In this document: one piece after another, positions 7,231-52,262 of the stretch | How positions within the stretch are numbered: the stretch's first letter is position 1 | Layout of the letters: every line of letters begins with the position of its first letter | NCBI GenBank assembly: GCA_020435205.1 | Contig: JAGQZY010000003.1 | Span: forward strand, 1,537 to 65,536 | Direction: 5' to 3' | Source: Bdellovibrionales bacterium | Lineage (GTDB): Bacteria > Bdellovibrionota > Bdellovibrionia > Bdellovibrionales > JAGQZY01 | DNA length: 64,000 nucleotides | Notes under the pieces: generated by a model | Databases searched by the model: none | What the model was told of the DNA's origin: nothing | Seen by the model: the letters and a program-made list of their open reading frames with translations, nothing else | Translations under genes and position numbers: made by a program

Positions 7231-7244
7231 ATAGAATGGAGGGG

Positions 7245-13397: not shown

Positions 13398-14231
13398 ATG
13401 GCTTTAAGGATTGCTACAAATATTCCATCCGTTACGGCGCAGAGATCGTTGAATAAAAATCAACGTATGTCGAACCAGGCGATGGCACAAGTTTCGACGG
13501 GGAGTCGAATCACCAAGGCAGCAGATGATGCCGCGGGACTTTCGATCTCTGAAAATCTTAAATCAAACATCCGCAGTTATAAACAAGCGGGTCGAAATGC
13601 TCATGATGGTATTTCATTAGTGCAAGTGGCTGAAGGGGCTCTTGGCGAGGTCAGTAACATTATCACTCGTTTTAGAGAGCTTTCCGTGCAAGCGGCCTCG
13701 GACACTATTGGTGACCAAGAAAGAGGATTCATTCAAAAAGAAGTGGAGCAAATGAAAAGCGAAGTAGAGCGCATTGCTCAATCCACTCAATTTGGTGACA
13801 AAAAACTTCTCAATGGAGAAGGCGATGAGTTTGACTTCCAAGTGGGTATTCACGAGGATGCCGAACTTAATGCAATCACTTTTGATGCAGCCGAGACCGA
13901 CGCAACTTTGAGTACTCTTGGTATTAGCGGTCTTGATATCTCTTCAAAAGGTGGCGCTCAAAGTGCCCTTGAATTGATCGATGAGGCGCAAACAAAGGTA
14001 AACGGCTATCGCGCTAATTTAGGAGCTTTGCAAAACCGACTGACGGTAACGACTGAGAATATTGATAACTCTGTGGAAAACTTGTCAGCCGCAAACTCTC
14101 GGATGCGTGATGCTGATGTCGCTGCGGCAACGGCAGATCTTACTAAAAGTAATATTCTGCTTAACGCAACAACATCTATGCTTTCACAAGCGAACCAAAA
14201 TCCCCAGTTGGCTCTGCGCCTGTTGGGATAA
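13398..14231 (+). CDS. fliC: Flagellin (short type, 277 aa)
   Basis: MALRIATNIPSVTAQRSL...ADDAAGLSISENLKS...ANLGALQNRL...AANSRMRDADVAA...SMLSQANQNP. The SD is AAAGGAGGA. Confidence 0.95.
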   Translation: MALRIATNIPSVTAQRSLNKNQRMSNQAMAQVSTGSRITKAADDAAGLSISENLKSNIRSYKQAGRNAHDGISLVQVAEGALGEVSNIITRFRELSVQAASDTIGDQERGFIQKEVEQMKSEVERIAQSTQFGDKKLLNGEGDEFDFQVGIHEDAELNAITFDAAETDATLSTLGISGLDISSKGGAQSALELIDEAQTKVNGYRANLGALQNRLTVTTENIDNSVENLSAANSRMRDADVAAATADLTKSNILLNATTSMLSQANQNPQLALRLLG

Positions 14232-19447: not shown

Positions 19448-20119
19448 ATGGAAAAAGTTGTTGTTAGCCAACAAACTCATCCGGCATTCTTTCGTCAATG
19501 TAAGAGCTTGGGTCAACTCATTGCTTGCTTAGAAAAGATGGGCGAAAAAGACGACCAGTACATTGTTAAAATCCTTTTGAATGGGCGCAAACTCGACAAT
19601 GACGAAGAACAATTGTTAGAAAGTCTATCTATCAATGAGGTCGATGAACTTGCTGTCCACTTTTCCTCTATAGATGAAATCACGGGAAAAACCATGATTT
19701 CAATCATAGGATCTATCCAGGATATCCAGCTTAATGTTATTAAATTTACTAAAGAGTTTCGTGGTGCCGACCAGATTGATGATGAGAAATTAAAATTTAT
19801 CCTCATCCAGTGCCGAGGTGTTATCGAAGGCTTGGAAGAGATATTTAAAACTCATAGTTCTGGAAAGTTGATGCTCAAGCACTTCTCCTTGTGGGTCGAA
19901 GCCGAAAAGGAGTTGACCAATATCCTGCAGTGCATCTTACAGAGCCGTAGCCTGAATGATGTGGAGTTTATTTCGGATCTACTAGAGTTTGATCTAGTTC
20001 AGGCACTGTCTCTCTGGGAGGAAGTGTTGGAAAAAGAAATGCACGATAGTCCAACCATATCGCAAATTTTTAGTTTGAATAGTCGACTTGATGGCAGCGA
20101 TAATGGGGTGGATGTCTGA
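19448..20119 (+). CDS. Hypothetical cytoplasmic protein (223 aa), no recognised family
   Basis: ORF 3 nt after the previous stop; acidic and helical. Its 3' end overlaps the kinase gene. Confidence 0.7.
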   Translation: MEKVVVSQQTHPAFFRQCKSLGQLIACLEKMGEKDDQYIVKILLNGRKLDNDEEQLLESLSINEVDELAVHFSSIDEITGKTMISIIGSIQDIQLNVIKFTKEFRGADQIDDEKLKFILIQCRGVIEGLEEIFKTHSSGKLMLKHFSLWVEAEKELTNILQCILQSRSLNDVEFISDLLEFDLVQALSLWEEVLEKEMHDSPTISQIFSLNSRLDGSDNGVDV

Positions 20120-22124
20120 TCAAACCTTATCCAACAATGTAGACCAAAAAGATATTTTATGGATCTGTGAAGAGGGGACGTCTGACGATCGCTGCACGAC
20201 CGCAGCGTCCGAGTTTGGACTAGTGAAACAAGCTTGTCGGTGGGCGGACATTGACTCTTTGGTGAGTTTGGACAACTGTAAAATACTGATCTGCAATCTA
20301 GTAAAAGATCACTTTACTGAAGAATTTTCTAAACTTCAAAAGTTGCAGCAACTTTCACCAGCTTCGGTCACCATCGTGCTTTCCCATGGGCTTGATATTG
20401 ATGCCATTAATTTATTGATCAATGAGATGCATGTGTTTGCGATATTGCAGCCCAATGAGAACCTAAGGGTTTTTATTCAGAAGGCTCTAGAGGCTTACAC
20501 GGACAAAAAGCAATATATATCGGCTCTTGGCAAAATAAAGAAGCAAAACCGGCAGCTTGAGGAGCTCAATGAGAATCTAGAATCTCTTGTACATGTCAGG
20601 ACAAAAAAAGAATTTGAGGCCAATCAAAAAGCTCTAGAATCTTTAAAGAGCATGCAAAGTCTTTTAAAATTTATTAAAATAGTCTCGCGGTCCGATACCC
20701 TTGAAGATCTTATGATAGCGGTAAGGGATGATTTTAAAAAGTTTCATGGTTTACGCCCTCCGATTCTTCTTTTTACAGAGAGTCAAAATCGCTTGAGAGT
20801 TTACTATTTTCAAGGGAAGCAGTTGACCAGTCGAAACAACAATCACGATGAAGTGGGAAAGCTTTTTGAAAAAGATAATGCCCCAACAATTCGAGGAGAG
20901 CTTAGCAATTTATTCGGAAGACCCTTTGGTCCTATTGAGGTATCGAACCTCAGTTTTCAATCGGAAGAACTTCAATCGGTGGGTGCCAAAATAATATGTG
21001 AACACTCTTTTGATAGTAAAAATCTCGATGATTTTTTTCAGTTCTCCTTTGAACGTTGGTCCATCATAAATATGGCATTAGAAAATATTCTATTGCAAAA
21101 AAGCTCTAAAGATATCGCTAGGCAGTGGGCTCGGACGTTTAATGAGATGAAAGACCCAATTATTATTATTGACCACCATTACCGGATGACTTTGTCCAAT
21201 GGCAATTTTCATAGGCAACAGGATCAGTTTTGTTATCAAGCCTTTGCCCAGCGCGACAGCCCTTGTTTGGACTGTCCTATTCAGAAAACCTTCGAAAAGG
21301 GGGGGGCTCAATATTCAGATATTCATTGTTTAGGTAAAGTTTTCCGGGTTCATTCCTATCCGATTCGACTTGACGGAGGTGAGCAAGTTTCCCACGCTAT
21401 TAATCAATATGTCGATATTAGTCAGTCCGTCGATTTGCAAAGTCGAGTGATACAGGGTGAAAAAATGGCAGCCATTGGCTTGCTGGCGGGTAATATTGCT
21501 CACGAGCTCAATAACCCCTTAACTGGAATTTATTCCTTAGCGGGTTTGCTCTTAGAGGATATCGAGCAGGGGACAAATACTTATAAAGATTTACAAGAAA
21601 TCCGTGATGCTGCTCACCGCTGCCAAATCATTATTCGCGACCTCCTCGATTTTTCTTCGGTGGGGGCTGATTCAAAAGTTCTAGAAGTGAATGCTAACGA
21701 GGTCATTCGCAAAACCCTTCCTCTTTTAAAAATGTCTATGCGAACCCATAATTGCGATATTCATCTCTCTGAGGATGAAATTCTGATTAGAGTGAATCCT
21801 CAATTGCTTCAACAGGTCATCTTCAACCTTGTTAACAATGCTTGTCAGGCTATGCATGAGGGGGGCAGCTTGAGTGTTTCCTGTGCAAGGAAAGAGGATA
21901 TTTGCCAGATTCGCATTTCTGACACGGGGCCGGGGATTCCTGAAGACCTAAGAGAATTGATCTTTGATCCCTTTTTTACTACTAAAGATGAAGGTAAGGG
22001 AACGGGTTTAGGGCTTAGCATGAGTCGCTCGGTCATTGAAAGGTTTGATGGCCGCTTAAAATTAGTTGAGAAACAAAATCCCGGAGCCGAGTTCCTTATT
22101 GAGTTTCCGGTGGTGAAAAAGTGA
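20088..22124 (+). CDS. Cytoplasmic sensor histidine kinase with receiver-like N-domain, coiled coil and Cys-rich PAS-like domain
   Basis: H-box IAHELNNPLTGIYSL, N-box VNNACQAM, G-boxes DTGPGIPEDL and GTGLGLSMS. No TM segments. Possible starts are TTG 20088 and ATG 20091, 20103 or 20112; the last is coupled to the upstream stop. Confidence 0.9.
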   Translation: MMAAIMGWMSDQTLSNNVDQKDILWICEEGTSDDRCTTAASEFGLVKQACRWADIDSLVSLDNCKILICNLVKDHFTEEFSKLQKLQQLSPASVTIVLSHGLDIDAINLLINEMHVFAILQPNENLRVFIQKALEAYTDKKQYISALGKIKKQNRQLEELNENLESLVHVRTKKEFEANQKALESLKSMQSLLKFIKIVSRSDTLEDLMIAVRDDFKKFHGLRPPILLFTESQNRLRVYYFQGKQLTSRNNNHDEVGKLFEKDNAPTIRGELSNLFGRPFGPIEVSNLSFQSEELQSVGAKIICEHSFDSKNLDDFFQFSFERWSIINMALENILLQKSSKDIARQWARTFNEMKDPIIIIDHHYRMTLSNGNFHRQQDQFCYQAFAQRDSPCLDCPIQKTFEKGGAQYSDIHCLGKVFRVHSYPIRLDGGEQVSHAINQYVDISQSVDLQSRVIQGEKMAAIGLLAGNIAHELNNPLTGIYSLAGLLLEDIEQGTNTYKDLQEIRDAAHRCQIIIRDLLDFSSVGADSKVLEVNANEVIRKTLPLLKMSMRTHNCDIHLSEDEILIRVNPQLLQQVIFNLVNNACQAMHEGGSLSVSCARKEDICQIRISDTGPGIPEDLRELIFDPFFTTKDEGKGTGLGLSMSRSVIERFDGRLKLVEKQNPGAEFLIEFPVVKK

Positions 22125-24996: not shown

Positions 24997-25644
24997 GTGG
25001 GTATTTGGTTTTTAATACAAATTGCGGTGAATATCTTTTTCCTCATTGGTTTAAGTATGTGTTTGGTGAAAATCTTCAAAGATAAAGAGGATGACCCTCG
25101 TTTGAGCCAAGGTTTGCGACTGTTGCAAAGTAAAATTGCTATCCTTGAAGATCTCTCTGATCATACTGAGAACCAGGTCAAACAATTGATGGCTCTCCTC
25201 GACAAAAAACTACAGGAGGTCCGTAAAGCCATGAGTTCGGTGAACCAGCATATTTGCGAAGTGGATCGGTCCATCGCCAAGAGTCAAAAAATGGCCGAGA
25301 AAATTGCCAATGAAATTCCCCATCAGCAGATTGTCGAAAAAAATCTGGAAAATAAATATATAAAGGCAGCACAAATGGCTCATCAGGGGAGTGGTGTTGA
25401 TGAAATCGTACAAAGCCTTGGGCTACCCCGCGGAGAAGTGGAGTTGATTACAAAAATAAACCGTAAGAAGTTTGTTTATGAAAAGTCGGCACCATCCTCT
25501 GTCTCAGAAGAGCTTTTCGAAAAAAGTATGGCCTTACCAGATATTCAAACCTCGAGTATGGAGCGCACGTATCTCAACTTTCATGAGGCGGTCCAAGAGC
25601 ATAAAGACAAAGACTCTGGGTTTGAGGCTGTTAAGCTAGGATAA
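24997..25644 (+). CDS. Membrane-anchored coiled-coil protein with a DUF2802-like C-terminal helix-turn-helix motif
   Basis: N-terminal TM segment (IWFLIQIAVNIFFLIGLSMCLV), then a coiled coil. The segment AAQMAHQGSGVDEIVQSLGLPRGEVELITKINR resembles the flagellar-locus-associated DUF2802 motif. GTG start. Confidence 0.45.
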   Translation: MGIWFLIQIAVNIFFLIGLSMCLVKIFKDKEDDPRLSQGLRLLQSKIAILEDLSDHTENQVKQLMALLDKKLQEVRKAMSSVNQHICEVDRSIAKSQKMAEKIANEIPHQQIVEKNLENKYIKAAQMAHQGSGVDEIVQSLGLPRGEVELITKINRKKFVYEKSAPSSVSEELFEKSMALPDIQTSSMERTYLNFHEAVQEHKDKDSGFEAVKLG

Positions 25645-36176: not shown

Positions 36177-36830
36177 TTATTGAACAAAAAAGCTATTTCT
36201 TGTTGGCGCGAAGGTATCGCCTGGAGCTAACAAATTGAAGAAACTAATCCCAAAATCAATTTGTATTTTAAACCATATAATTTGCTCATTGAGCTTAATA
36301 TTTTGATTTTGGGTTGTGAGCTCTGTGGTTAGAATTTGCGAGTATCCAAGTACAACCGACGTGACTGGGCTCAGCGGGAGAGCCAAGCCGGCCTGCCACT
36401 GGGTGGGATTATAATCATATTCGAAGAGTTCATTCACTGTGCCAGCCTTGAGATGCTTTCCTCGCATGAACTGGTAATCGATTCCAGCAAACAGATAGGA
36501 GTAGTTAAACCTTACGCCTGTTCCCAAACCATTAAACTGACCCCATTCTGCAAGAGCCGCTGTGCTCGCATTGTTCGTTAAAGAGGTGTAGCGATAGGAT
36601 AGGTCAAAATCAATAGAGAAAAGCCCCGAATTGAGCAGTGGAAATAGAACATCGCCCTGTACAGCAACACCACTATATTTAGCATTTAAAGAACCCGTGG
36701 CAATGGTCAAACTAGGATAACCAACAGAGATTTCCATACCCACACCCTTTTGTGTGGAGGCCCAGCTTGATGAACAAAACAAGAGAAGAATAGAGAGAAA
36801 GAATAATCTATTCACTGGAGATATCCCCAA
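36177..36830 (-). CDS. Small outer-membrane beta-barrel protein (OmpW/porin-like)
   Basis: Signal peptide (FFLSILLLFCSSSWA) and alternating hydrophobic/aromatic beta-strand pattern with Gly-rich turns. The start is TTG 36830 or GTG 36815, and either overlaps the upstream gene end. Confidence 0.6.
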   Translation of the reverse strand: MGISPVNRLFFLSILLLFCSSSWASTQKGVGMEISVGYPSLTIATGSLNAKYSGVAVQGDVLFPLLNSGLFSIDFDLSYRYTSLTNNASTAALAEWGQFNGLGTGVRFNYSYLFAGIDYQFMRGKHLKAGTVNELFEYDYNPTQWQAGLALPLSPVTSVVLGYSQILTTELTTQNQNIKLNEQIIWFKIQIDFGISFFNLLAPGDTFAPTRNSFFVQ

Positions 36831-37791
36831 TGATCACCATGTCAGCGATATTCAGGCTGTAGACATCACGGATAAATGGTTCTGTACCAACTCTTTCTCC
36901 GGTCGTTGTGATTCGTTCAATGCTGTCCGTTGCTGAGGATGCTACTAATAGATCTCCATTGGGAAGCTCGACAATACCAGTAGGATCGTTGATGATTGAA
37001 GTGTCAGTATCCCAAACGATAACCGGATTAGAGCCATCGGGATCAGCTCGATACACGCGGTCGTCGCCTTGGGTAGTTACGTAAAGGTAACCATCAGAAT
37101 GCAAAAGGATTCCATAGGGATTATTGCCAAAACTGACGTGACTAACACAAGTGGCTGTAGAGGTGCTGATGTCGTAGGTCAAAATTTCATCAGCTCCACC
37201 AGCATTGGCAACCACAAGCTGGCCGCTAGCATTAACGAGCATTCCACGAGGTGAGTTCAATGTGCAGGCGCCAGTATTGGTATCGATAAGATCGCTTCCG
37301 AGCCGAATACCGCTGGCATCAAAAACTTCAATGCGATTATTTTCGGTGGCATAGACATTACCATTGGTACCAATGGCAAGATCGTATATTGTGCCGCTAA
37401 ACTGTGCTGAGCCATGGAATAGGGTTTTGCTTCCATCTAAGTTAATTTGGTAAATGGAATCCGTTGTGTCTAAACTCATGTAAACATTTTCTGAGTCTAG
37501 AGCAACGAGTCCTCTGGGGGTCGCTGTTTCGGCGCGAAAGTTACCACCCCTAATGAATTCCCCGTCGGTAGTATAAAAGGCAAATCCACGGTGGTTTCCG
37601 TCAGAACCAGCAATAACTAAATAGGGGATACTTGTGCTCGTCTCTGAAGCCAGGCTCAGGACATCACCTTGTTCTTTTCCACATGAAATAAACAGCAGGG
37701 AAAAAGCTACGAATAGCGATATGTGGACGGGCATCTTCATACGTATCATATCGGTATATTTTCTTGAAAATTTAAGATCAAAATAAGACAT
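36808..37791 (-). CDS. NHL-repeat / six-bladed beta-propeller lipoprotein
   Basis: Lipobox LLFISC after MKMPVHISLFVAF; internal starts at 37749, 37740 or 37734 are possible. Repeated motifs such as PRGLVALDSENVYMS, IYDLAIGTNGNVYAT, PRGMLVNASGQLVVAN, PYGILLHSDGYLYVT and PTGIVELPNGDLLVAS are typical NHL blades. Confidence 0.75.
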   Translation of the reverse strand: MSYFDLKFSRKYTDMIRMKMPVHISLFVAFSLLFISCGKEQGDVLSLASETSTSIPYLVIAGSDGNHRGFAFYTTDGEFIRGGNFRAETATPRGLVALDSENVYMSLDTTDSIYQINLDGSKTLFHGSAQFSGTIYDLAIGTNGNVYATENNRIEVFDASGIRLGSDLIDTNTGACTLNSPRGMLVNASGQLVVANAGGADEILTYDISTSTATCVSHVSFGNNPYGILLHSDGYLYVTTQGDDRVYRADPDGSNPVIVWDTDTSIINDPTGIVELPNGDLLVASSATDSIERITTTGERVGTEPFIRDVYSLNIADMVIIGDISSE

Positions 37792-37926
37792 CTATACCTT
37801 AGCCCATGAGAAGTTGTCGAAGGCGGCGCCCGTCTTGAGTCTAGGGGATTGGTGGGGGGGCAATAAAATGTGTATCAATCTAGGAATTACTAATACTTAG
37901 CCCACTTTTGACCGATATGTTTGTTG

Positions 37927-40917
37927 ATGTTGGCAAAGCTAAAGTACCTATTCATAATTGGAACTCTTTCGCTCTCTTTCTCCGGCTGTAAGCAGGGGAG
38001 TGATGCTTTTGATTTGCTGGGCAGTAGTGACACGACCTCGGTTGAGGATTTAGAAATTACGAGTCGAATTCCCGATCAAGCTTTAATCACGCTCAAGATC
38101 GGCGAATCTCAGCAATTTGCTGTCACCGCTTTGGCTCCGGCTCCACGAACCGTTTCTTATTCTTGGAAGCTAGATGGTTCAGCCTCTGGCGCCGGTCAAG
38201 TTTTTACCTTTACTGCAACAGCTGGGTTGGTGGGCGAGCACAGCTTGAAAGCTATTGTCACCGATGGCGAATCAGTCAAAGAAAACGAGTGGACGATTGT
38301 GGTCAATGCACCACCAGTGATTACGGCAATTTCAACGGGCACTCAAAAAGTCGCGGTGGGATCCACCATTAATATTTCAGCTTCTGCCACAGACCCAAAT
38401 GGTGACACCTTAACCTACAGTTGGGTGGTGGATGGAGCCACCAGTGCCTTTCTCACGGGGACAACAGGGACAGGAAGTTTTACCGGTGACTCTTCTTTAG
38501 TTGGTGCTCGAACCATTACTCTCACTGTGAGTGATGGGATTGAGAGCGTGTCCACTTCGTGGAGTGCTGAAGTGAATTATTTTCCTCAAGCTTGCAACAC
38601 TTTAGCGCAAGGAGAAATTTGTACATATAGTGGTGGACCTCACAAAGGAACAGGTTATCCTGTGACCAATACAACCTTTCCACTCCGTTTTCGACCTTTC
38701 AGTCATGTGCAAGATGCGCTAGGAAATATTTTTATTTCTGACCTCGATAGTAATGTCATTTGGTATTGGAATAAGACAGCAGCTCCAGTGAGTCGAATTG
38801 GGCAAACCATTCCAGCAGGAGTCATCCAAATTGTTGCTGGGACTGGTGAAGCAGCAAGTGGTGGATCTGGCATCCCAGCTCTGCAGTCAGCTCTAAATAG
38901 CCCTCGAGGGCTGTGGTACAATGACGTCACCGGGACTCTTTACGTTGCAGAGTATAGTGGTCACGCCGTGAAATACATCGATAACACGGGGACAGTATTT
39001 GTGGGAATGGGCGGAGGAACTAGCCATGTTGATGGCAACACAGCCTACAATCACGATTGCAATAACCCTGTCCATCTTGCCCATTACAATAACAATTTGT
39101 ATGTCACTTGTTATGCCCATCATCGGGTGAAAAGATGGGATCTGGCGACCGATTTAGGCTATATTGCCGGTGGTGATGGAGGCAATGATATTGCCGGGGA
39201 AAACACCAATCCAACCACTTCAGGAATTGGCAACCCTTATGGACTTTACGTCGATGCCAATGGAATTTATGTGGGTAGTTACTCTCAGCACGTGGTGAGA
39301 TTCATCAACCACAGTGGTGCTCCTTACACATTTTGGAGCGGAAACCCCGATCAAGTGATCGTTGCCAATGGCATGATTGCCTCCATTATTGGTGACGGAG
39401 GAACTTCAGAGCCAGGTTTGGCCATGAATCCCCTGAGCGAATCCTTAGGGCGACCGGTGACGATCACAGTCCGTAATGGCAATGAAATCTTTGTCGGCGG
39501 TCAGCAGCGGGATGATATTGTTCTCGTTAATAATTCAGGAGCTGGTGTGACTATTGATGGAATCACTGTGAATCCTGGCCTTCTCTCTCGCATCAACAAT
39601 TCTGCGGGTGGCTATAATGGAGATATCAATATTAGTAATGCTCGAGTAGACGACCCTTACCAATTGTCGGTGGATATTTTGGACAATAATAAACTGATAT
39701 TGTCCGATTATAATAACTATCGATTACGTGAGCTGGATTTTACCTCTGGAAGATTTTCCAACTTAGCTGGAACAGGCCGAGGAGAGTTGGGATTTTATGG
39801 AGATGTAGAGCTGCCCACCCAAGAGCACCTTTTTAATTATCCCACAGGGATTTTATTTGATGACACCACTCGCACTCTCTTTTTTGCAGACCAAAATAAC
39901 CATCGATTGCGCCAGACGGATGCTTACGGGAGAACCTCAACAGCATTGTGCCGAGGCGCGGGTGATCCTACTATTGATAATGATTTTCCATCCAATGCAC
40001 TTTGCAGAACTAATATTAATAGCAATAACTCAATGAACAACAGTTTTGATATTTGGTCAGATGGCTCTTTAGCCGTCCTCAATAGTTATGGTCACAATGT
40101 TAGAATTTGGAACCGCAGTGGGGCGGATCAAACCTATTTGGGCTCATTCATTCAAAATGACCGAGTCACCACTGTGGCTGGTGATTGGGTCGCTGGCGCT
40201 GGTAATGGCCCTGATGGACCGGCTTTGAACACTCAGTATCAATATCCCAATAGTGTTAAATTTTTCAATAATGCTGGCAATATGGAGCTTTGGATTCTCG
40301 ACACTATGAACCATTGTTTAAGAATGGTCGATAGTGCTGGTAATAGCACGACAATGTTGGGCCTTTGCGGGACTTCTGGAGATCCGGGACCGAGTGCCGC
40401 TGCGGCTGCGGCTCGTTTTAATAGGCCGCGGGGTTTGCTCATTGATGGAAGCGGAAATATTTATATTTCTGATTATAACAACGACACCATCTGGTTCTGG
40501 AATCGTGGAGGAAGCCCCGTCACAATTGGGACTGTCACCATTAACCCTAATGATGTTGCAAAAGTAGCTTGCTTGTCGGGATCGTCGGGGAGTAGTGCGG
40601 AAAACGTATTTGCAACAACCGCTCGATGTAATGAGCCTGCAGGGCTTGCAATGAGTGGTAACAACCTGTGTTTTGCGCAAAGAAACCGCCATAACGTGCG
40701 TTGTATAGACATCACGACAGGACTAATCAGTACTGTTGCGGGAAGGGTCGAGGCGGCTCCTCGTTCAGGGTCTCTTTTTGACTATTCTCAGGAAGGTGTG
40801 GCAGCAACATCAGCCACTCTTTCCTATCCTGCGGCAATCGCCTTTGACGCCAACGGAGATTTATATATTTCTGATACCTACAATCATGTTATTCGAAAAG
40901 TGAAACTCAGTCCTTAG
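37927..40917 (+). CDS. Large lipoprotein with Ig-like (PKD/Big-type) repeats followed by many NHL/beta-propeller repeats
   Basis: Start at the ATG 37927 gives MLAKLKYLFIIGTLSLSFSGC (lipobox). There are two similar roughly 90-aa Ig-like units (YSWKLDGSASGAG...HSLKAIVTDGE and YSWVVDGATSAFL...RTITLTVSDGI). These are followed by numerous NHL-like blades (PRGLWYNDVTGTLYVAEY, PYGLYVDANGIYVGSY, PTGILFDDTTRTLFFADQNNHRLR, PRGLLIDGSGNIYISDYNNDTIW, PAAIAFDANGDLYISDTYNHVIRKV). Confidence 0.8.
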   Translation: MLAKLKYLFIIGTLSLSFSGCKQGSDAFDLLGSSDTTSVEDLEITSRIPDQALITLKIGESQQFAVTALAPAPRTVSYSWKLDGSASGAGQVFTFTATAGLVGEHSLKAIVTDGESVKENEWTIVVNAPPVITAISTGTQKVAVGSTINISASATDPNGDTLTYSWVVDGATSAFLTGTTGTGSFTGDSSLVGARTITLTVSDGIESVSTSWSAEVNYFPQACNTLAQGEICTYSGGPHKGTGYPVTNTTFPLRFRPFSHVQDALGNIFISDLDSNVIWYWNKTAAPVSRIGQTIPAGVIQIVAGTGEAASGGSGIPALQSALNSPRGLWYNDVTGTLYVAEYSGHAVKYIDNTGTVFVGMGGGTSHVDGNTAYNHDCNNPVHLAHYNNNLYVTCYAHHRVKRWDLATDLGYIAGGDGGNDIAGENTNPTTSGIGNPYGLYVDANGIYVGSYSQHVVRFINHSGAPYTFWSGNPDQVIVANGMIASIIGDGGTSEPGLAMNPLSESLGRPVTITVRNGNEIFVGGQQRDDIVLVNNSGAGVTIDGITVNPGLLSRINNSAGGYNGDINISNARVDDPYQLSVDILDNNKLILSDYNNYRLRELDFTSGRFSNLAGTGRGELGFYGDVELPTQEHLFNYPTGILFDDTTRTLFFADQNNHRLRQTDAYGRTSTALCRGAGDPTIDNDFPSNALCRTNINSNNSMNNSFDIWSDGSLAVLNSYGHNVRIWNRSGADQTYLGSFIQNDRVTTVAGDWVAGAGNGPDGPALNTQYQYPNSVKFFNNAGNMELWILDTMNHCLRMVDSAGNSTTMLGLCGTSGDPGPSAAAAAARFNRPRGLLIDGSGNIYISDYNNDTIWFWNRGGSPVTIGTVTINPNDVAKVACLSGSSGSSAENVFATTARCNEPAGLAMSGNNLCFAQRNRHNVRCIDITTGLISTVAGRVEAAPRSGSLFDYSQEGVAATSATLSYPAAIAFDANGDLYISDTYNHVIRKVKLSP

Positions 40918-41468
40918 AATTCGATGCCAAGACCGATAAGCATATTCATTTGCTTGGCCAGTGCATCACCATTGCCGTAAAGATAGTCATATCGAAACTC
41001 TGCATTCAAAAAGACATCTCTACTCAGTGAATAGTCGACTCCAAGGCTCATACCAGGCCCCAAATAGCTTGAGGATAGGGCTAAATTAAAAATTCTTTGG
41101 CGAAAAGACAAGCCAATATAGGGGCGCCATTTTTCTTGGATAATTATAGAGGCTTTTCCAGATTCAATATCTATGGTTCCGGCACTGGTGAAGGGAAAGT
41201 ATTTTCCGCCAAAATCAAAACCATAGCCTGAGCTGCCAGTGTAGATATCACTCATGAGGACATTGATCCCGAAAACACCCTGGAACTTTGGCGACACCGC
41301 ATAGGCGATCTCAACAGAGTAGGCGCCAAAGCCACTGCTTGACTCCGAATTGGACCGAACATTTTCGGTTTGGAAACTCCAACTTCCTCCTTTGATGGCC
41401 ACTTGTCCAACAGAGGCAGAGCTGGAAACTCCGAAAAATAAAACCAAAGTGCTAAGCGCTAGCTTCAT
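40914..41468 (-). CDS. Small outer-membrane beta-barrel protein
   Basis: Start at the ATG 41468 gives the signal peptide MKLALSTLVLFFGVSSSASV. It shows a beta-strand alternation pattern and a C-terminal ...IGLGIEF ending in Phe, the classic OMP beta-signal. It is the last gene of the mot operon. Confidence 0.65.
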   Translation of the reverse strand: MKLALSTLVLFFGVSSSASVGQVAIKGGSWSFQTENVRSNSESSSGFGAYSVEIAYAVSPKFQGVFGINVLMSDIYTGSSGYGFDFGGKYFPFTSAGTIDIESGKASIIIQEKWRPYIGLSFRQRIFNLALSSSYLGPGMSLGVDYSLSRDVFLNAEFRYDYLYGNGDALAKQMNMLIGLGIEF

Positions 41469-43146
41469 TGGCCATTTCTCCACTGGTTGCAGTCCTTTTC
41501 TCAACATAGGCTTTACAAAGACTCATGATCTTTCGTTTGGTGCCGACGAGAGCTTCTATAGGTGTTGGGTGTACATCCTGTTGCTTTCGATACTGTTTAA
41601 GAAGGAATTTCTGCCTTTGCGTCATAAGGTTCTCAATTTTCGTAGTCTCTTCTTGGTCACAGTGAGTAAATACAAGCGCCCATTCATCGATAGAAATATC
41701 AAGGCTCAAATTTTGTAGCACGTTCTCTTCCGATTGAAAGACTTGGTAGAAGGGAAAGCGACTTTGCTTGACCCGATGTGTATCTGGCAAAACGCGATAA
41801 ACTTCCCGTTCATCTTTGGTTACAGCCGTATCAAGGTATTGGATAAGATCGTGTTCAGCGAAGTACTCTTCCACGGTATCTGCACTCTGCAGAGGTTTCA
41901 GTTCAATAGCTTCATCAATAAGTTTTTTAACATTCTTAACCTCAGAACGAGTTGTAGCCTGTTTTGCTCCGAGTAGCTCAGCCCATTGGCCGGGATAAAG
42001 GTACTTGCTGACTTTGATCATAAGGTCTCTGGGAAGAAGTCTAAGAATTGGGGCGGCTTCATCAAATTTTTTATTTTTTAAAAGTTGCCCAAACATTTTA
42101 TGATCAAGACGAGAAAGAACAAGCTCAAGTTCTCTATTTTCTGGATGAGTATGGCTATTTTCCTCTTTTTCAGAGAGTTCTATTCTTAACTTTATATGCA
42201 AAATCGCATCCATAATTTTTGCTGAATTTTGATTCAATTGAGAGGGTTCGGTAATAGCTGTATACCACCACTGCCCCCTTCCATAACGAAAAAGGCTTTT
42301 TACAACAGGGGGAGGAAGCTCCTTAAAAATAGATCCCATTGCATGAGGATACTTATACCCTAGATCTTCAATGGCACGGATCAGTACACCGTTGGGGTTT
42401 TCAAAGACCTGAAGGCAGTCTGAAATCTGACTTTTTATTGAGGCCATTTGTGAGTCCGATAAAACCGGACCGGGTGTTGATATTGAGTCCATAAAGGTTT
42501 GTGGCATCTTGTTAGCAGCTACAGCTGGGTTGGCGGCAAAGGTTTCAGTGGACTTTCCGATATCGGCGAGGGGGCCAGCAATGCCTTTCACCAGGGTTCG
42601 GATTCCATTTTGAAAAGCTATGAAAAACAAGAAAAAACCAAAGAGAAGCAAACCAGCACCAATACCCAAGAAAAGCTTTTTTTGTCGGCTGGTCGTTGTT
42701 GAACCCCAAGATTTTTCGGAAATCTCAACGCGATCATGAATGGGGGACAGCTTTAGGTACTGATAAATCTGATCCCTAAACTGATCTTTTTCAGCCTCCG
42801 CCATATCGCTATCGATATCAATCTTGACGTAGACACTTTTAAGATATCCTAATAGGGTGCCTAGTGACAGATCTTTTCGACTCCAAAAATTGACCTGATC
42901 TTCAGAAACTGAATCCAGATAGGGGAGACTGATTGCGCCGCGATCTGCGCTGTCAGCCAAGCGACGTTCTGGCTGACTGCCATCTGTTTCCACCTTAACG
43001 TAGACTGTAAAAGGCTTTTCTGGGAATCGAGTTTTGATAAAATCTGTTGCCTTTTTAGAGTAGTAGTCCTCGATTTCAACAATTCTTGAGGCATAGCCAT
43101 TGGATGAAAAGAGAATAAGACTGATTAAAATGAGTACATACTTCAT
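41452..43146 (-). CDS. Bitopic/two-pass membrane protein: N-terminal signal or TM, about 135-aa periplasmic domain, TM (about aa 157-178), about 385-aa cytoplasmic domain with FliG-like features
   Basis: MKYVLILISLILFSSNGYA; TM segment KKLFLGIGAGLLLFGFFLFFIAF. An internal repeat reads ELPPPVVKSLFRYGRGQW and LLPRDLMIKVSKYLYPGQW. The C-terminal RFPFYQVF...IENLMTQRQKFLLKQY aligns without gaps to the E. coli FliG MFLFENLV...FLRNMSQRAADILRDD region. The alignment is mine, by eye. Confidence 0.7.
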   Translation of the reverse strand: MKYVLILISLILFSSNGYASRIVEIEDYYSKKATDFIKTRFPEKPFTVYVKVETDGSQPERRLADSADRGAISLPYLDSVSEDQVNFWSRKDLSLGTLLGYLKSVYVKIDIDSDMAEAEKDQFRDQIYQYLKLSPIHDRVEISEKSWGSTTTSRQKKLFLGIGAGLLLFGFFLFFIAFQNGIRTLVKGIAGPLADIGKSTETFAANPAVAANKMPQTFMDSISTPGPVLSDSQMASIKSQISDCLQVFENPNGVLIRAIEDLGYKYPHAMGSIFKELPPPVVKSLFRYGRGQWWYTAITEPSQLNQNSAKIMDAILHIKLRIELSEKEENSHTHPENRELELVLSRLDHKMFGQLLKNKKFDEAAPILRLLPRDLMIKVSKYLYPGQWAELLGAKQATTRSEVKNVKKLIDEAIELKPLQSADTVEEYFAEHDLIQYLDTAVTKDEREVYRVLPDTHRVKQSRFPFYQVFQSEENVLQNLSLDISIDEWALVFTHCDQEETTKIENLMTQRQKFLLKQYRKQQDVHPTPIEALVGTKRKIMSLCKAYVEKRTATSGEMANEASA

Positions 43147-44156
43147 GGCCTTGTCCTTCTATGTTTTAAATTATGTTGGTTCACAACTTTTTCCGCCTGC
43201 TCTTGGGAATAACCCTTTTTTTGTAGCTCAGAGGCCACAGAGCGATCCACAATCTTTTGTAGCAACTCAATATGATTAAGCCGTTCATTGATATTTTGAG
43301 TGATAGCCTTGCTATTAAAAAATGCTTTCATTTTAGCAGAATCAATAACCTCTTTTACCGACTCTACGATTTCGTTGAGATCGCTAAGATGCATCCTATT
43401 TGAGCTTTTCGCAATCGTTGCTGAGGAAACCTCTTCGAAAGGTTTTGCACTTGCATCGATTTCTTCACGACTATCATTTTTAATTTCGCTCGCAGGAACG
43501 GGCTCAATAATAATATCAATTTTTCTTTGCAAGCTAGCCAGATCCCTATCAAAATTTTGATTTTCTTTTGGGGATTCGCCGTAACCAGCGATTCTCAGAT
43601 TTTTCAATTCAATTCCCTGATTATGCAGGAAACGGACAGCCGATATAGAGCGAAAGGCGGAGAGCTCTAAATTATCACTATACTTCCTCTTGGCGCGTAT
43701 AGGCTTTTCATCAGTGTAACCTCTAACCACTAGGCGGAATGCGCCAATATGCTTGGCAATAGCGCGTGAAAAGTCAGAAAGAGCATCTTCGCCTTCTTGG
43801 GTAAGAATATGATTCCCAGAATTGAAGAAGCTCACTCCGGGAAACTCAACCAAAATTCTCTCACCTTTTATATTTGCCTGAATTTTATAGGCACTTTTTG
43901 TATCACTGCTATAAAGAGGGGAGGCGACTTCGCCATGATTACTGAGTTCTGCAGATGGCTTTGTGGGATTCACTTGAGAGACAAAGTATTGGTCCAAGTC
44001 TTTCTTTATGAGATTTAAATTGAAAACTTGTGGCTTAATGTTGAAAAACAAAATAAAGAATCCCAATAGTAAGGTGATCATATCGCCGTAGCTAATGGCC
44101 CAGTTGTTTTCGGCATCTTCAGAACTAAATGGGGCGCGGAGCTTATTTAATTCCAT
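43143..44156 (-). CDS. motB: MotB-family stator protein (OmpA-like peptidoglycan-binding C-domain plus a C-terminal extension of about 100 aa)
   Basis: NNWAISYGDMITLLLGFFILFF is the TM segment with the conserved proton-binding Asp. The OmpA-like region reads FFNSGNHILTQEGEDAL...VVRGYTDEKP...DNLELSAFRSISAVRFL...IAGYGES. Confidence 0.85.
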   Translation of the reverse strand: MELNKLRAPFSSEDAENNWAISYGDMITLLLGFFILFFNIKPQVFNLNLIKKDLDQYFVSQVNPTKPSAELSNHGEVASPLYSSDTKSAYKIQANIKGERILVEFPGVSFFNSGNHILTQEGEDALSDFSRAIAKHIGAFRLVVRGYTDEKPIRAKRKYSDNLELSAFRSISAVRFLHNQGIELKNLRIAGYGESPKENQNFDRDLASLQRKIDIIIEPVPASEIKNDSREEIDASAKPFEEVSSATIAKSSNRMHLSDLNEIVESVKEVIDSAKMKAFFNSKAITQNINERLNHIELLQKIVDRSVASELQKKGYSQEQAEKVVNQHNLKHRRTRP

Positions 44157-44158
44157 GG

Positions 44159-44950
44159 CTAAGCGCTTTCGTTGTAGTGAATTCCGAGTATGTCAATTCT
44201 TTGTTTTGGATCTAGATAAGAGTTGAGCATTTCTTGAACGGTTAGAGCTGATTTCTGATCATGGATCATTAAAAGTCCCTCTAGCAAAAGTTCACGAAAC
44301 ACCTTTTGGTCCTCAGCCTTTTGTAAAAAATGTTCAGAAATAGGCGCTAAAACAAAATTCGAAAACCCAAGGCCATAGAGGGTAGCTGTTAGAGCTAAGG
44401 CCATGTTGAGACCAATTTGTGCGGCGTCGGCACCAGCTCCGACAGATCTCATTAAATTGACTAGACCTAAAACAGTTCCAACCAGACCAAATGCAGGAGG
44501 ATATTTAGCCAGCCTCCGAAAGAGAGTAACAATTTCTTCTTCTCGTTGACGAGCTCTGTAGATTCGTTCTGTTAGAATACTTTTAAACTCTTGTCTTTCT
44601 AGGCCTAATAAAAGCAATTCGATTCCCTCTTTTAGAAAAGGATCAATTTTTTTGTTGTTTAAAAGTGGTCGAACGCTTGCTTTTGAAGCTCCTTCTTGTG
44701 ATGAGGCGCGCACTAATACGTCAATAGATTCAATAGTGTTGGGCCTTCCTGATTTGAGCATAGCAAATGGAGCAAAAAATAATTTTTTCAAATATAAAGG
44801 AGGGAATGAAATCACTGTGGTCGCTAAGGTTCCTCCGAGAACAATGAGCAAGGCCACCTCATCAAAGTAAAAATCTATACTGACGCCCAATATATTTCTG
44901 ACGGTGTACAGAATTCCTAGAATGAGGGTAAATCCGATGAGGTTGTACAC
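44159..44950 (-). CDS. motA: MotA/PomA-family stator protein
   Basis: 263 aa with four TM segments. YPPAFGLVGTVLGLVNLM and ALALTATLYGLGFSNFVLAPI are typical of the MotA/TolQ/ExbB channel family. The size and cytoplasmic loop fit MotA. GTG start overlapping the upstream stop (TAGTG). Confidence 0.85.
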   Translation of the reverse strand: MYNLIGFTLILGILYTVRNILGVSIDFYFDEVALLIVLGGTLATTVISFPPLYLKKLFFAPFAMLKSGRPNTIESIDVLVRASSQEGASKASVRPLLNNKKIDPFLKEGIELLLLGLERQEFKSILTERIYRARQREEEIVTLFRRLAKYPPAFGLVGTVLGLVNLMRSVGAGADAAQIGLNMALALTATLYGLGFSNFVLAPISEHFLQKAEDQKVFRELLLEGLLMIHDQKSALTVQEMLNSYLDPKQRIDILGIHYNESA

Positions 44951-45561
44951 TAGCGATCACTCCTAGGTATTCCGGATTCGATTTTGTTGACCAAATTTTG
45001 AACTTCGATATTGTCAGGGTCGAATTCCAAGGCCTTATAATATGCAGCTAAGGCATCTTGGTGTCTCTGTTGCAGGTAATAGGCATTACCTAAGAGGCTC
45101 CAGCCGACAGCAAAAGATGGGTACTCGCTAACGAGGTTTTGGGCCAAGGATTGGGCTGAGTCATAATTTCTTTTATATAGGTTGGACTGGATACTAGCTA
45201 CCATTCGGCTGACTTTTTCAATTTTGACATTTTCGATCCCACCATTGGCGCTTGCGATCCCTCGGCCCCCTTCGTTCCCATCGAGTTGAGCAAAAATTTG
45301 CGCGTGGGTTGAGAGGGTTCGCTTTTCAAGTATGACTGAGTAAGGCTCAAACCCCGTTTTTTTAATAACAAGATGAACATTTGACCCTTCAATTTGTGAT
45401 ACTGGAATATTAAGTGGGGTCTCGCCAAGCTTCTTAAGGCGCTTGTCGGCTTGGCTGTAGACTTCCGCACCCTGTGGTTGCGAATCCACTTGAACCGTCA
45501 TACTGCTACAGCCGTAGATCAGTATTGGGATGAAAATAATAATTAGGCGAATCCTTGCCAT
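44950..45561 (-). CDS. Lipoprotein with PEGA-like beta-domain and C-terminal TPR repeats
   Basis: Lipobox LIYGC. The PEGA-like region is VQVDSQPQGAEVYSQ...LGETPLNIPV...VHLVIKKTGFEPYSVIL. The TPR region is AVGWSLLGNAYYLQQRHQDALAAYYKALEFDPDN. Confidence 0.7.
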   Translation of the reverse strand: MARIRLIIIFIPILIYGCSSMTVQVDSQPQGAEVYSQADKRLKKLGETPLNIPVSQIEGSNVHLVIKKTGFEPYSVILEKRTLSTHAQIFAQLDGNEGGRGIASANGGIENVKIEKVSRMVASIQSNLYKRNYDSAQSLAQNLVSEYPSFAVGWSLLGNAYYLQQRHQDALAAYYKALEFDPDNIEVQNLVNKIESGIPRSDR

Positions 45562-46415: not shown

Positions 46416-47339
46416 CTAGAGTCCGATTTCGTTCTCTAGCTGGTCTATCAGGACTTGGATCATATTGTCATTTGTAAAAATGTTATCCAGAGCGGATTTC
46501 CCGCGGTCATAGGCGGCTTGGGCAAAAGATTGGGCTTCGGGGTGGCGCAAGCGAATAAGCTCCACCGCTTTTTCCATAGCATCGATGAGCTCTTGGTAAG
46601 TGGGATCCGATTTGCGGTCGATAAAATATTGTTCAATATGCTTCAATGGGTAGAAAATCGCTGGGTATTGATTGATATTTCCATCCAGTTCCAGCTGTTT
46701 TTGAAAAACAAAGCCACGCACCACTAATCCTTTGGCACGGGTACCATCACTGTAAAAGCGCGCGGTGGTATTTGGCGCGACTTGGATATGATGGATCACC
46801 CCTCGTTTGAGTTCAAAATCGGGCGTGTAATGCAGTTGCAGATCCGTGCATAAAGGTTCAATCTCGCCATTGCGAATGAGCATATTCGCCGTGTTTTGCA
46901 CAACTTGCAATTCGCCATCGGGTTTTTGGATCACAACTAAAAAGTTCTTATCTTTAGTGAGTATCACTCGTTTACGACAATCACTACTGAAATGCTTATC
47001 CACCCACTTTTCAAGAATAGTCACAGTGTCTAAGCTATTCTTGATGGGAACCACTTGCCAGCGATCGGGAAAGCTAAAATCTTTTAAGCTCCAGTTGAGC
47101 ATGTAGGTTTCGTTATAGTGCTGAAGCATATACTGCAGTTCTTGGCTAAGGGCTGAAGCATGATCCTGCCAGTGTTTAAAGCTTAAGGCTCTTCTGCAAA
47201 AATTCTCAATAACCGAAGCCGTGAGCGGCGTGTCTGTATCGCAGTGATGGATCAAATAGTGGTACAAACATAGACGCGTGGCATCTTTGTTGGGCTGGAA
47301 CTGGAGAATATGTCTTGCAAGATGGGTGGTTGTATTCAT
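46416..47339 (-). CDS. Hypothetical cytoplasmic protein (307 aa), no recognised family
   Basis: Long ORF 4 nt upstream of the pseudouridine synthase gene. I recognise no motifs. Confidence 0.65.
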   Translation of the reverse strand: MNTTTHLARHILQFQPNKDATRLCLYHYLIHHCDTDTPLTASVIENFCRRALSFKHWQDHASALSQELQYMLQHYNETYMLNWSLKDFSFPDRWQVVPIKNSLDTVTILEKWVDKHFSSDCRKRVILTKDKNFLVVIQKPDGELQVVQNTANMLIRNGEIEPLCTDLQLHYTPDFELKRGVIHHIQVAPNTTARFYSDGTRAKGLVVRGFVFQKQLELDGNINQYPAIFYPLKHIEQYFIDRKSDPTYQELIDAMEKAVELIRLRHPEAQSFAQAAYDRGKSALDNIFTNDNMIQVLIDQLENEIGL

Positions 47340-51356: not shown

Positions 51357-52262
51357 TTAATGGTCGAAGTTCAAACCGACAACTGTCTGATTGCGGCCTC
51401 GTCTTTTAGCTTGATAGAGGGATTGGTCAGCACTAATGATGAGTTCATCCACAGAGTCAGCGTGTTGCGGATAAGAAGCAATTCCCAGACTTATGCTCAG
51501 GGGATAGTTATTAAAAGAGCAGTTGAGAACATGATTTCTCATTCTTTCGGCCACCATCAAAGCCTCTTCAGAGGTCGTGTTTGGGAGAATCACTGCAAAC
51601 TCTTCGCCCCCGTATCTGGATATAGAATCGCCTTCGGGGCAATTGTTTTTGAGTTCTTCAGCCACTTGGGCAAGGAGTTTATCTCCCTCAGGATGGCCAA
51701 AACGATCATTGAATTTTTTGAAATGATCAATATCGATCATGATTAATGAAAGGGCCCTTTTTTTGTCTTTATGCCTATCAAACTCAATACGAATTCTTTC
51801 TTGAAAAAAACGATGATTAGTCAATTGAGTGACGGGGTCCGTAATTGCTAGCTTCTGCAAGCGTTGGGACTCCATTAAGCTTTTGTGAAACTTATAAGCC
51901 TCAACCACTTGAATCAAAAGTTGATCGTTTTCCCAGGGCTTCATAATGAACTTATGAACTTTCGCTGTATTAATAGCATCTTCCATACTCTTTAAATCAA
52001 TTTGTCCACTGAGAAGGACTCGGCCACAGCTAGGCACCGCCTTTTCTACTTTGGACAAAAATTCAACACCATTTTCCGTGCCTAGGATATGGTCGCTAAT
52101 AACAACAGAGATATCGGGGTTTTGTTCAAGGATTGCAAAGGCATCAATTGTGTCCGTGGCTAAGAGAACTTCAAAGCGGCGGCGCAAGGTTCGCTCAAGA
52201 GATTCTAGAATTCCTAGCTCGTCGTCAACACATAGAATTTTAGGTAAATTATTTTCCATCAT
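51357..52262 (-). CDS. Response regulator with GGDEF diguanylate cyclase output (REC-GGDEF)
   Basis: REC domain ILCVDDELGILESL...VVISDHILG...FIMKPW. GGDEF domain DPVTQLTNHRFF...IMIDIDHFKKFNDRFGHPEGD...RYGGEEFAVIL. There is no RxxD I-site 5 residues upstream of GGEEF. Confidence 0.9.
   Translation of the reverse strand: MMENNLPKILCVDDELGILESLERTLRRRFEVLLATDTIDAFAILEQNPDISVVISDHILGTENGVEFLSKVEKAVPSCGRVLLSGQIDLKSMEDAINTAKVHKFIMKPWENDQLLIQVVEAYKFHKSLMESQRLQKLAITDPVTQLTNHRFFQERIRIEFDRHKDKKRALSLIMIDIDHFKKFNDRFGHPEGDKLLAQVAEELKNNCPEGDSISRYGGEEFAVILPNTTSEEALMVAERMRNHVLNCSFNNYPLSISLGIASYPQHADSVDELIISADQSLYQAKRRGRNQTVVGLNFDH

Follow-up and report, generated by a model that had tools for sequence, protein, structure and literature searches.

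To our knowledge, FliG is known only as the flagellar rotor protein, and MotAB of the flagellar type only as the stator that belongs to this rotor. The DNA analysed here, a window of 64,000 nucleotides from the genome of a Bdellovibrionales bacterium (assembly GCA_020435205.1, contig JAGQZY010000003.1, positions 1,537 to 65,536), encodes a protein of 564 amino acids (aa), referred to here as the FliG-like protein, in which a FliG homologue stands behind an exported domain and a single transmembrane helix, and the gene for this protein lies directly downstream of genes for a flagellar-type MotA and MotB. A natural FliF-FliG fusion has previously been described in Chlamydiaceae; it comprises approximately 330 aa, with RBM2 and a second ring-building motif (RBM), a transmembrane helix, and a FliG_M-like domain only (Bergeron 2016, PMC4768692), has neither a FliG_C domain nor a partner MotAB, and is believed to function together with the injectisome (PMC4768692). 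Engineered Salmonella and Vibrio FliF-FliG fusions (e.g., PDB entries 8z4d and 8z4g) are described as assembling rings. In a 2025 survey of MotAB relatives, the flagellar-type clade (FIT) consists of flagellar stators, and FliG appears only as the flagellar rotor contact (PMC12505986).

The first-pass annotation of this locus, made from the nucleotide sequence alone, had regarded a FliG-like domain tethered to the membrane and encoded next to MotAB as an architecture not yet described. This claim needs narrowing, as the FliF-FliG(M) fusion is known in Chlamydiaceae (PMC4768692) and engineered fusions exist; what stands is that we found no description of a fusion that includes FliG_C and is encoded with a dedicated MotAB in a cassette outside the flagellar genes. 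Full-text literature searches for FliG-like or FliG-domain proteins outside flagella returned no description of such a protein or cassette. The cassette that contains the gene for the FliG-like protein looks like a second, stripped-down flagellar-type motor that we did not find described in the searched literature, and the FliG-like protein is probably the torque-receiving, rotor-like partner of the MotA and MotB encoded upstream of it, within a non-flagellar motor module that is derived from or related to the flagellar rotor-stator pair.

The open reading frame (ORF) of the FliG-like protein exists as called in the first-pass annotation, on the minus strand, and the topology proposed there (a hydrophobic N-terminus, an exported domain, and one transmembrane segment) holds for this protein and across 141 full-length homologues. 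By a Kyte-Doolittle scan, aa 1-19 are hydrophobic and end in NGYA followed by SR, and there is a single strong transmembrane segment (aa 158-180, with values of up to 2.57), which in the AlphaFold model is embedded in a long predicted helix (aa 153-203). Of the 141 homologues, 137 have an N-terminal hydrophobic segment and all 141 have the transmembrane segment, with a second transmembrane segment in only 2; the residues R21, E24, and E26, directly after the N-terminal segment, are invariant. The positive-inside rule is uninformative for this family (2.5 vs 2.7 Lys plus Arg residues on either side of the transmembrane segment), and the topology thus rests on the N-terminal export signal: the N-terminus is exported, the chain crosses the inner membrane once, and the FliG homologue lies in the cytoplasm. 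The sequence motifs quoted in the first pass sit where they had been placed, at aa 276, 370, 464, 477, 503, and 545, with DNA positions 41494-41757 corresponding to aa 464-551.

That the cytoplasmic part is FliG-like had been claimed from a comparison by eye, with Pfam scans, profile-profile alignment, and comparison of an AlphaFold model with FliG structures named as ways to check it; each of these supports the claim. For the window protein alone, similarity to FliG_C appears marginal, with Pfam FliG_C (PF01706) matching aa 458-548 at E=0.0014 and 19.4 bits, below the gathering score of 23.3, and Pfam MgtE_N matching aa 342-405 at E=0.06. At the level of the family, FliG_C is recognised in 11 of 14 close members and in 49 of a broader set of 87 (best E=1.5e-10), and MgtE_N is recovered in 20 of the 87 (best E=3.6e-7). 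A profile of 141 family sequences, when compared with PDB, matches Thermotoga maritima FliG_C first (E=5e-5), followed by other FliG chains. Alignment with hhalign of the family to a FliG profile of 12 sequences (Escherichia coli FliG and the products of eleven megaplasmid or chromid fliG loci) gives a probability of 96% and E=9e-10 over 280 columns, in which aa 253-554 run collinearly with E. coli FliG 34-322; as controls, reversal of the family profile gives E=0.37 and FliF, used as a negative control, E=0.68. Within this alignment, aa 253-405 are aligned to FliG 34-174, and the first approximately 33 residues of FliG_N have no counterpart. When parts of the protein are aligned separately, aa 460-555 match FliG at E=8e-9 and aa 335-405 match FliG 107-174 (ARM_M) at E=0.003.

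The AlphaFold model has a mean predicted local distance difference test (pLDDT) score of 76, with aa 225-555 mostly above 90 and the ARM-like region (aa 231-405) at about 85-94, and its cytoplasmic part is all-helical and forms an ARM-like array. The best PDB match of the model, as found with Foldseek, is full-length Aquifex aeolicus FliG (3hjl, 345 columns, probability 0.99), and further top matches are Salmonella C-ring FliG chains and FliG-MC crystal structures; the FliG_C portion superposes on 1qc7_B with a template modelling score (TM-score) of 0.79 and a root-mean-square deviation (rmsd) of 3.6 Å, and on 8ucs_H, a FliG_C bound to MotAB, with a TM-score of 0.74. An unrelated membrane protein whose helical repeats resemble FliG by chance might account for a single-sequence Pfam match below the gathering score, an internal repeat that is not significant, and a FliF match that is likewise not significant (see below); this explanation is essentially excluded by family-level similarity far beyond chance (FliG_C to 1.5e-10, PDB FliG at 5e-5, and hhalign at 9e-10 vs 0.37 for the reversed control) and by FliG structures as the top Foldseek matches. 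The cytoplasmic part is a FliG homologue, with ARM-like N and M domains followed by a FliG_C domain with its torque helix.

Two details of the earlier comparison by eye held only in part. The alignment of the torque-helix region to E. coli FliG is recovered by hhalign in the same register (F464/F234, R511/R281, Q518-Y519/D288-D289, and K545/R313), while its description as free of gaps is slightly wrong, since one gap of 2 residues is needed after aa 522. The proposed internal duplication (aa 276-293 vs 370-388) is likewise recovered in register, but at E=0.05 vs 0.12 for the reversed control it is not significant; we thus rejected a demonstrable sequence duplication, and the two segments are better read as two ARM-like repeats. 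The region that holds them (aa 231-405) carries repeated LP...G-x-W motifs, with W294 in one and P385-G386-W388 in the other.

The FliG-like protein keeps some of the residues that mark FliG and lacks others. As the first-pass annotation had noted, the Arg at the R281 position is kept (R511) and the acidic pair D288/D289 is replaced (Q518-Y519). Among the 141 homologues, the position equivalent to R281 is Lys or Arg in 140, and the position equivalent to D288 is Glu in 81 (57%), with Gln in the window protein; the equivalents of D289 (aa 519), K264, and R297 are not conserved. A motif at the position of the MFXF hinge, R463-x-P465-F466-(Y/F), is nearly invariant (Y467 in the window protein), and the family has a conserved C-terminal Ala-Ala. 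The EHPQR motif, through which FliG binds FliM, is absent, the aligned columns being variable and reading KKFD in the window protein, and the FliG-like protein thus probably does not bind FliM. Because several features of FliG fail here (EHPQR, most of the torque charges, solubility, and operon context), the protein should not be annotated simply as FliG, and is better called a FliG-domain protein of a distinct family.

The adjacent MotAB reported in the first pass is confirmed by Pfam (MotA_ExbB for MotA; MotB_plug and OmpA for MotB) and by PDB matches to MotA/PomA and MotB. MotA, a four-TM subunit, is closest in PDB to flagellar MotA/PomA (E=1e-27 to 2e-16); ExbB/TolQ and other Tol/Exb structures are absent from its PDB matches, and TolQ/ExbB models match MotA at 1e-3 only. 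Cassette MotA also has a conserved stretch that reads ERIYRxRQR(D/E)EE. MotB matches MotB in PDB at E=9e-12, and its channel-Asp motif WAISYGDM is conserved in the 7 loci read. The NCBIfam scores, among them the PomA/MotP-like ones of MotA, are all below the equivalog cut-offs, and the cassette stator is thus a divergent paralogue; it is flagellar-type and anchored to peptidoglycan, and presumably ion-conducting. A Zorya or other defence-system reading of the stator genes was rejected, since PADLOC shows only generic MotB/ZorB similarity, with no ZorA, ZorC, or ZorD, and reports nothing for MotA, the FliG-like protein, or the neighbouring genes.

Some further observations concern the ends of these proteins. 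In the window, MotB has a charged, helical-looking C-terminal extension (43143-43480, aa ~225-337) that follows the OmpA-like domain and is not conserved, and cassette MotB is between 221 and 411 aa long, depending on the locus. MotA and the FliG-like protein share conserved tails of small residues: MotA (44159-44167) ends in ESA, EAS, EAA, NAA, or AAA, as seen in the window and in loci L001-L043, and the FliG-like protein (41455-41463) ends in x-A-A, with the last Ala in 92% of the 141 members; MotB, the lipoprotein, and the barrel encoded in the same cassette are without such a tail. The tail resembles an ssrA-like ClpXP degron or a docking motif shared by the two proteins.

The FliG-like protein belongs to a sizeable family. 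A word-indexed search returned 15 relatives with 31-51% identity, labelled "Bdellovibrionales bacterium" where an organism is given, and a second such search with a 141-sequence alignment returned the same 15 proteins only. An exhaustive profile search returned 209 representative clusters, 155 of them at E<1e-30 and nearly all of 550-600 aa with full-length matches; the clusters are metagenome-derived and mostly hold 1-2 member sequences, and at most 10. The 141 full-length members form two main clades of 104 and 27 representatives, with the window protein in the smaller one, and identity to the window protein falls as low as 17-20%. Named carriers are metagenome-assembled genomes of Bdellovibrionales, Bdellovibrionia, and Pseudobdellovibrionaceae, found in a genome scan, and one Oligoflexus sp., found in a search with a member of the major clade (P0038); every named locus of the family belongs to Bdellovibrionota.

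The genomic context of the family was compared across twelve distinct loci from look-ups and the genome scan, with members down to 20-25% identity, and nineteen loci from metagenome contigs. The cassette comprises genes for a PEGA/TPR lipoprotein, MotA, MotB, the FliG-like protein, a small outer membrane barrel, and a giant Ig/NHL (or FN3) lipoprotein; this six-gene set recurs in each of the other loci compared and is conserved across Bdellovibrionota. In 29 of 30 informative loci, including ones whose members share only about 20% identity, the gene immediately upstream of that for the FliG-like protein is MotB, and in every one of the 22 loci long enough to show it, the barrel gene follows immediately downstream. 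Along the operon, successive genes overlap or abut at their stop and start codons; MotB and the FliG-like protein overlap by 4 nt (ATGA) in the window, and the stop codon of the FliG-like gene overlaps the start codon of the barrel gene in most loci. The FliG-like protein and a flagellar-type stator are co-encoded, co-transcribed, and translationally linked. A scan of the operon for promoters and terminators gave counts at the level of shuffled sequence and was uninformative.

The remaining members of the cassette are envelope proteins. The lipoprotein gene at the head of the operon is found in every locus that reaches that far, with the lipobox Cys present in the 7 loci read; the protein has a PEGA-like N-terminal domain and C-terminal TPR repeats, with a weak match to tol_pal_ybgF (E=0.016). 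The giant lipoprotein, which has teneurin/NHL matches in PDB, is transcribed convergently to the cassette in the window; homologues with 27-66% identity adjoin the cassette in most loci, with varying position and strand. In the Oligoflexus-like loci (L026 1241-7054 and L027 948-6761), a 1937-aa FN3/He_PIG/Laminin_G_3 (LamG) lipoprotein takes the place of the NHL giant, at the head of the cassette. The pattern suggests that the large surface protein is an exchangeable "cargo". The ORF of the small barrel is likely called too long in the window, as its homologues begin at the equivalent of Met14 (41468), a start that leaves an overlap of 17 nt with the stop end of the FliG-like gene.

Between its N-terminal segment and the transmembrane helix, the FliG-like protein has one exported domain only, of about 130-135 aa, with no RBM1 and no RBM2. 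Two AlphaFold models, one of the full protein and one of aa 19-152 with a 47-sequence alignment, agree on its structure: an alpha helix (21-40), a beta strand (46-53), an insertion (56-94) with a conserved LPY...W88, a second strand (104-111), a second helix (117-130), and a third strand (139-144). This is the alpha-beta-beta-alpha-beta topology of the RBM, with an insertion between beta1 and beta2; the core is modelled with pLDDT values of 80-93 and the insertion at low confidence. FliF RBM3 and SpoIIIAG also carry a collar inserted between beta1 and beta2. In Foldseek searches with the isolated domain, no structure scores higher than the FliF RBM3/S-ring chains (TM-score 0.55-0.56, probability 0.99), with local matches that cover 50-58 columns at an rmsd of 1.9 Å, and SpoIIIAF is also among the matches. 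When the whole family is aligned with hhalign to a FliF profile of 8 sequences, aa 21-244 are collinear with FliF 234-550 at E=0.0027, a stretch that comprises RBM3a, a skipped collar, RBM3b, TM2, and the C-tail. Pfam YscJ_FliF and YscJ_FliF_C gave no match at E<=1 for the window protein or the 87 members, among the 25 families listed of 58. The FliF-style half of the first-pass description is thus only moderately supported, by the modelled fold, with RBM3 giving the highest TM-scores, but not by sequence, where there is no YscJ_FliF match and the hhalign comparison of the domain stays at the level of the negative control; sequence-proven homology to FliF was rejected and the domain is not filed as FliF. 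We regard it as RBM-like, and its homology to FliF RBM3 as plausible but unproven.

These components allow a mechanism to be outlined. Peptidoglycan-fixed MotA5B2 would turn on ion flow, and the cytoplasmic domain of MotA would push the FliG_C-like domain; since the stator is fixed to peptidoglycan, useful work would require its partner to move. The FliG-like protein probably forms a small ring, in which copies would be joined by their RBM-like periplasmic domains and by ARM stacking and which would be a one-polypeptide "MS ring plus FliG ring" without RBM1/RBM2, export gate, rod, or FliM/FliN switch. A ring would be the simplest arrangement, given the RBM-type fold, the retained ARM_M/ARM_C units that polymerise FliG, and the engineered FliF-FliG fusions that form rings. 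The features missing from the protein (RBM1/2, the first approximately 33 residues of FliG_N, EHPQR, and the flagellar charge pairs) fit a motor without export apparatus, rod, and switch. In the periplasm, the PEGA/TPR lipoprotein, the small outer membrane barrel, and the giant Ig/NHL surface lipoprotein would then take up its motion; the TPR lipoprotein may serve as a periplasmic scaffold, a role in which PflA/PflB and CpoB are comparable, and the surface element that is driven or anchored may consist of the barrel and the giant lipoprotein. The output might be the moving or tensioning of a surface adhesin, in gliding or in contact with prey or surfaces. The fullest version of this proposal, in which Bdellovibrionota possess a second, flagellum-independent rotary motor, with a FliF-RBM3-like and FliG ring made of one polypeptide, its own MotA5B2, and no export apparatus, rod, or switch, coupled via the TPR lipoprotein and the outer membrane barrel to the giant Ig/NHL lipoprotein for gliding or prey contact, is put forward tentatively and is, taken as a whole, somewhat doubtful.

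Several points weigh against a rotor-like FliG-like protein or against parts of the mechanism. Interaction with the stator, ring formation, and rotation are inferred, and the output of the module is read purely from the gene neighbourhood. A periplasmic domain of 135 aa is too small to span to the outer membrane alone. For the exported domain, Foldseek E-values are all at least 0.007, with OsmC and tautomerase folds scoring similarly, and hhalign of the domain alone against FliF is collinear (residues 234-430) at E=0.035-0.08, compared with 0.064 for a negative control. In L047, MotAB seems to be missing directly upstream, with the family match at a contig end; this concerns one locus only. 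Finally, R90 and E98 (E. coli numbering) are the MotA charges that contact FliG in flagella; in the clade of the window protein, the equivalent of E98 is Leu, Met, or Ser and the basic character near the R90 position is retained only in part, and in the major clade the loop is hypervariable. As R90/E98 are not kept in MotA and D288/D289 of the torque helix are Gln-Tyr, any interface between the two proteins differs from the flagellar one. Comparison of 22 MotA/partner pairs for charge co-variation between the R90/E98 region and the torque helix gave no pattern, the MotA loop being too variable. As to L047 itself (110-7309), its partial family match lies directly beside a divergent 2360-aa NHL giant and overlaps the over-extended ORF of the latter, and the locus is either a rearranged variant or an assembly artefact.

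The altered MotA charges are also relevant to a different kind of machine, a non-rotary force transducer of the Tol-Pal or TonB kind, in which no ring would form and single copies of the FliG-like protein, pushed via the FliG_C-like domain, would energise a process in the outer envelope (e.g., the handling or display of the giant lipoprotein). The absence of the flagellar R90/E98 charges would suit such a transducer, as would the weak tol_pal_ybgF match of the TPR lipoprotein and the content of the cassette, which parallels TolQ/R/A/B/Pal/CpoB in having a stator pair, a single-pass inner membrane protein, a beta-propeller, an outer membrane protein, and a TPR protein. We nevertheless consider it unlikely: MotA and MotB are flagellar-type and peptidoglycan-anchored, with TolQ/ExbB models far behind and no Tol/Exb structure matched; TolA and TonB couple via a transmembrane helix, not a cytoplasmic FliG domain; and a whole FliG (N/M/C) together with an RBM-type domain is hard to explain without oligomerisation.

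The positions of the cassette genes in the window, and of the domains of the FliG-like protein, are as follows.

Cassette genes and domains of the FliG-like protein, in window positions; aa ranges refer to the FliG-like protein
Feature	Position	Strand	Basis
Gene 1, PEGA-like/TPR lipoprotein, 203 aa, lipobox IYGC	44950..45561	-	Pfam TPR_1 E=7e-10, PEGA E=3e-4
MotA, flagellar-type stator A subunit, 263 aa, ends in ESA	44159..44950	-	Pfam MotA_ExbB E=3e-21
MotB, transmembrane Asp (WAISYGDMITLLL), plug, OmpA-like peptidoglycan-binding domain, C-terminal extension of ~110 aa	43143..44156	-	MotB_plug E=3e-8, OmpA E=7e-10
FliG-like protein, 564 aa: signal peptide, RBM-like domain, transmembrane helix, FliG-like part	41452..43146	-	
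aa 1-19, N-terminal signal peptide (or signal anchor)	43090..43146	-	Hydrophobicity; 137/141 homologues
aa 20-150, exported RBM-like domain	42697..43089	-	AlphaFold, Foldseek
aa 158-180, single transmembrane helix	42607..42675	-	Kyte-Doolittle; 141/141 homologues
aa 231-405, two helical domains of ARM-like type, corresponding to FliG_N from residue 34 onwards and to FliG_M/MgtE_N	41932..42456	-	hhalign, Pfam MgtE_N, AlphaFold
aa 406-555, FliG_C-like domain (ARM_C and helix bundle)	41482..41931	-	Pfam FliG_C, PDB profile match, hhalign, Foldseek
aa 503-524, torque-helix equivalent (KIENLMTQRQKFLLKQYRKQQD)	41575..41640	-	Column counts, 141 homologues
Small outer membrane beta-barrel, ~185 aa, C-terminus GIEF	40914..41507	-	Pfam OMP_b-brl E=1e-4; signal peptide
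Giant lipoprotein, 998 aa, lipobox FSGC, Ig/PKD/cadherin-like and NHL beta-propeller repeats	37921..40917	+	Pfam NHL E=2e-18, Big_9/PKD

Flagellar genes are present elsewhere in the window. Four flagellins and FliD are encoded approximately 25 kb from the cassette (2749-3666(-), 3878-4723(-), 12159-12986(+), 13398-14231(+), and 14904-16283(+)), and the window also encodes a protein with DUF2802 (24997-25644(+)), a flagellum-associated domain. The flagellins and FliD indicate that the organism is flagellated, and the cassette is thus an extra module. In a flagellated cell, the FliG-like protein could instead serve the true flagellar motor, as a decoy, parking site, or clutch with a FliG_C tethered to the membrane, by which one of several stator sets would be sequestered or regulated; the flagellar genes in the window and the flagellar type of the stator speak for this. 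Morehouse and colleagues are said to have reported in 2011 that Bdellovibrio uses several MotAB pairs on one flagellum, which would count in the same direction. Such an accessory role is, however, quite improbable, as the protein is always encoded with its own MotAB, lipoprotein, outer membrane barrel, and giant lipoprotein, the cassette MotA is without the R90/E98 equivalents needed for canonical FliG, and neither FliG N/M domains nor a conserved periplasmic domain would be of use to a decoy. In the flanking DNA retrieved for the other loci (7-10 kb, as far as each contig allows), there are no flagellar genes.

Other genes near the cassette are less constant. Beyond the giant lipoprotein (36177-37791, minus strand) lie genes for a smaller NHL/Vgb-lyase-like lipoprotein (327 aa, lipobox ISC), a homologue of which (65% identity) adjoins the cassette in L009, and for a protein of 217 aa that has a signal peptide but matches no Pfam family. 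On the other side, an RluB-like pseudouridine synthase gene precedes the cassette, and just upstream of it is a gene for a 307-aa protein without a Pfam or NCBIfam match (46416-47339, minus strand), which is not conserved beside the cassette in other loci. Elsewhere in the window are genes for a response-regulator/GGDEF diguanylate cyclase (51357-52262, minus strand) and an orphan histidine kinase (20088-22124, plus strand).

If the FliG-like protein is the partner of the cassette stator, the flagellar torque-generating pair would here be seen at work outside the flagellum for the first time. Should it act as a rotor, a system of about 3 proteins would be far simpler for studying stator-rotor coupling and might represent a new motility or adhesion machine in predatory bacteria; such a rotary motor would be a minimal stator-rotor core, relevant to how the flagellar motor might work, or might have arisen, without the type III export machine, and a concrete test case for the relation between such a core and the export apparatus as flagella evolved. 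Even if the protein is no rotor, the cassette would represent a new coupling of a 5:2 motor to its partner, via a cytoplasmic FliG_C domain instead of a transmembrane helix.

Compared with the systems described to date, the FliG-like protein is closest to FliG in its cytoplasmic part, with which it shares collinearity over residues 34-322, an ARM-like M domain, the FliG_C fold, a torque helix that keeps a basic residue in the place of R281, a conserved hinge where FliG has MFXF, and a gene beside flagellar-type MotAB. FliG differs in that it is soluble and bound non-covalently to the C-terminus of FliF, whereas the protein described here is anchored in the membrane behind an exported domain; FliG also has EHPQR, the D288/D289, K264, and R297 charges, and a gene in a flagellar operon, all of which the FliG-like protein is without, and the latter has a conserved C-terminal Ala-Ala. 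With FliF it shares the succession of an exported domain, predicted to be of RBM type with a beta1-beta2 insertion, a transmembrane helix, and a cytoplasmic segment that leads to FliG. FliF, by contrast, has RBM1 and RBM2 and a "collar" of ~110 aa, as opposed to ~40 aa here, and the N-terminal segment that would correspond to FliF TM1 resembles a cleavable signal peptide in the FliG-like protein. FliF forms a homo-oligomeric ring of about 33-34 subunits. The chlamydial FliF-FliG fusion is likewise one polypeptide with exported RBM-type domains, a transmembrane helix, and a FliG-like cytoplasmic domain, but is set apart, by its description in PMC4768692, in having no FliG_C, no dedicated stator, and an injectisome context.

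Other machines resemble the cassette as a whole. Tol-Pal (TolQRA), ExbBD-TonB, AglRQS-Glt, GldLM/T9SS, and ZorAB each combine an ion-driven unit of the A5B2 type with envelope-spanning partners for a task other than swimming, and the giant surface protein of the cassette recalls the gliding systems that move adhesins. We know of none among Tol-Pal, ExbBD-TonB, Agl-Glt, GldLM, and ZorAB that uses a FliG-like cytoplasmic partner. The A and B subunits of those 5:2 motors are of the Tol, Exb, Gld, or Zor type, whereas the cassette described here encodes a flagellar-type MotA and a MotB with a plug and an OmpA domain.

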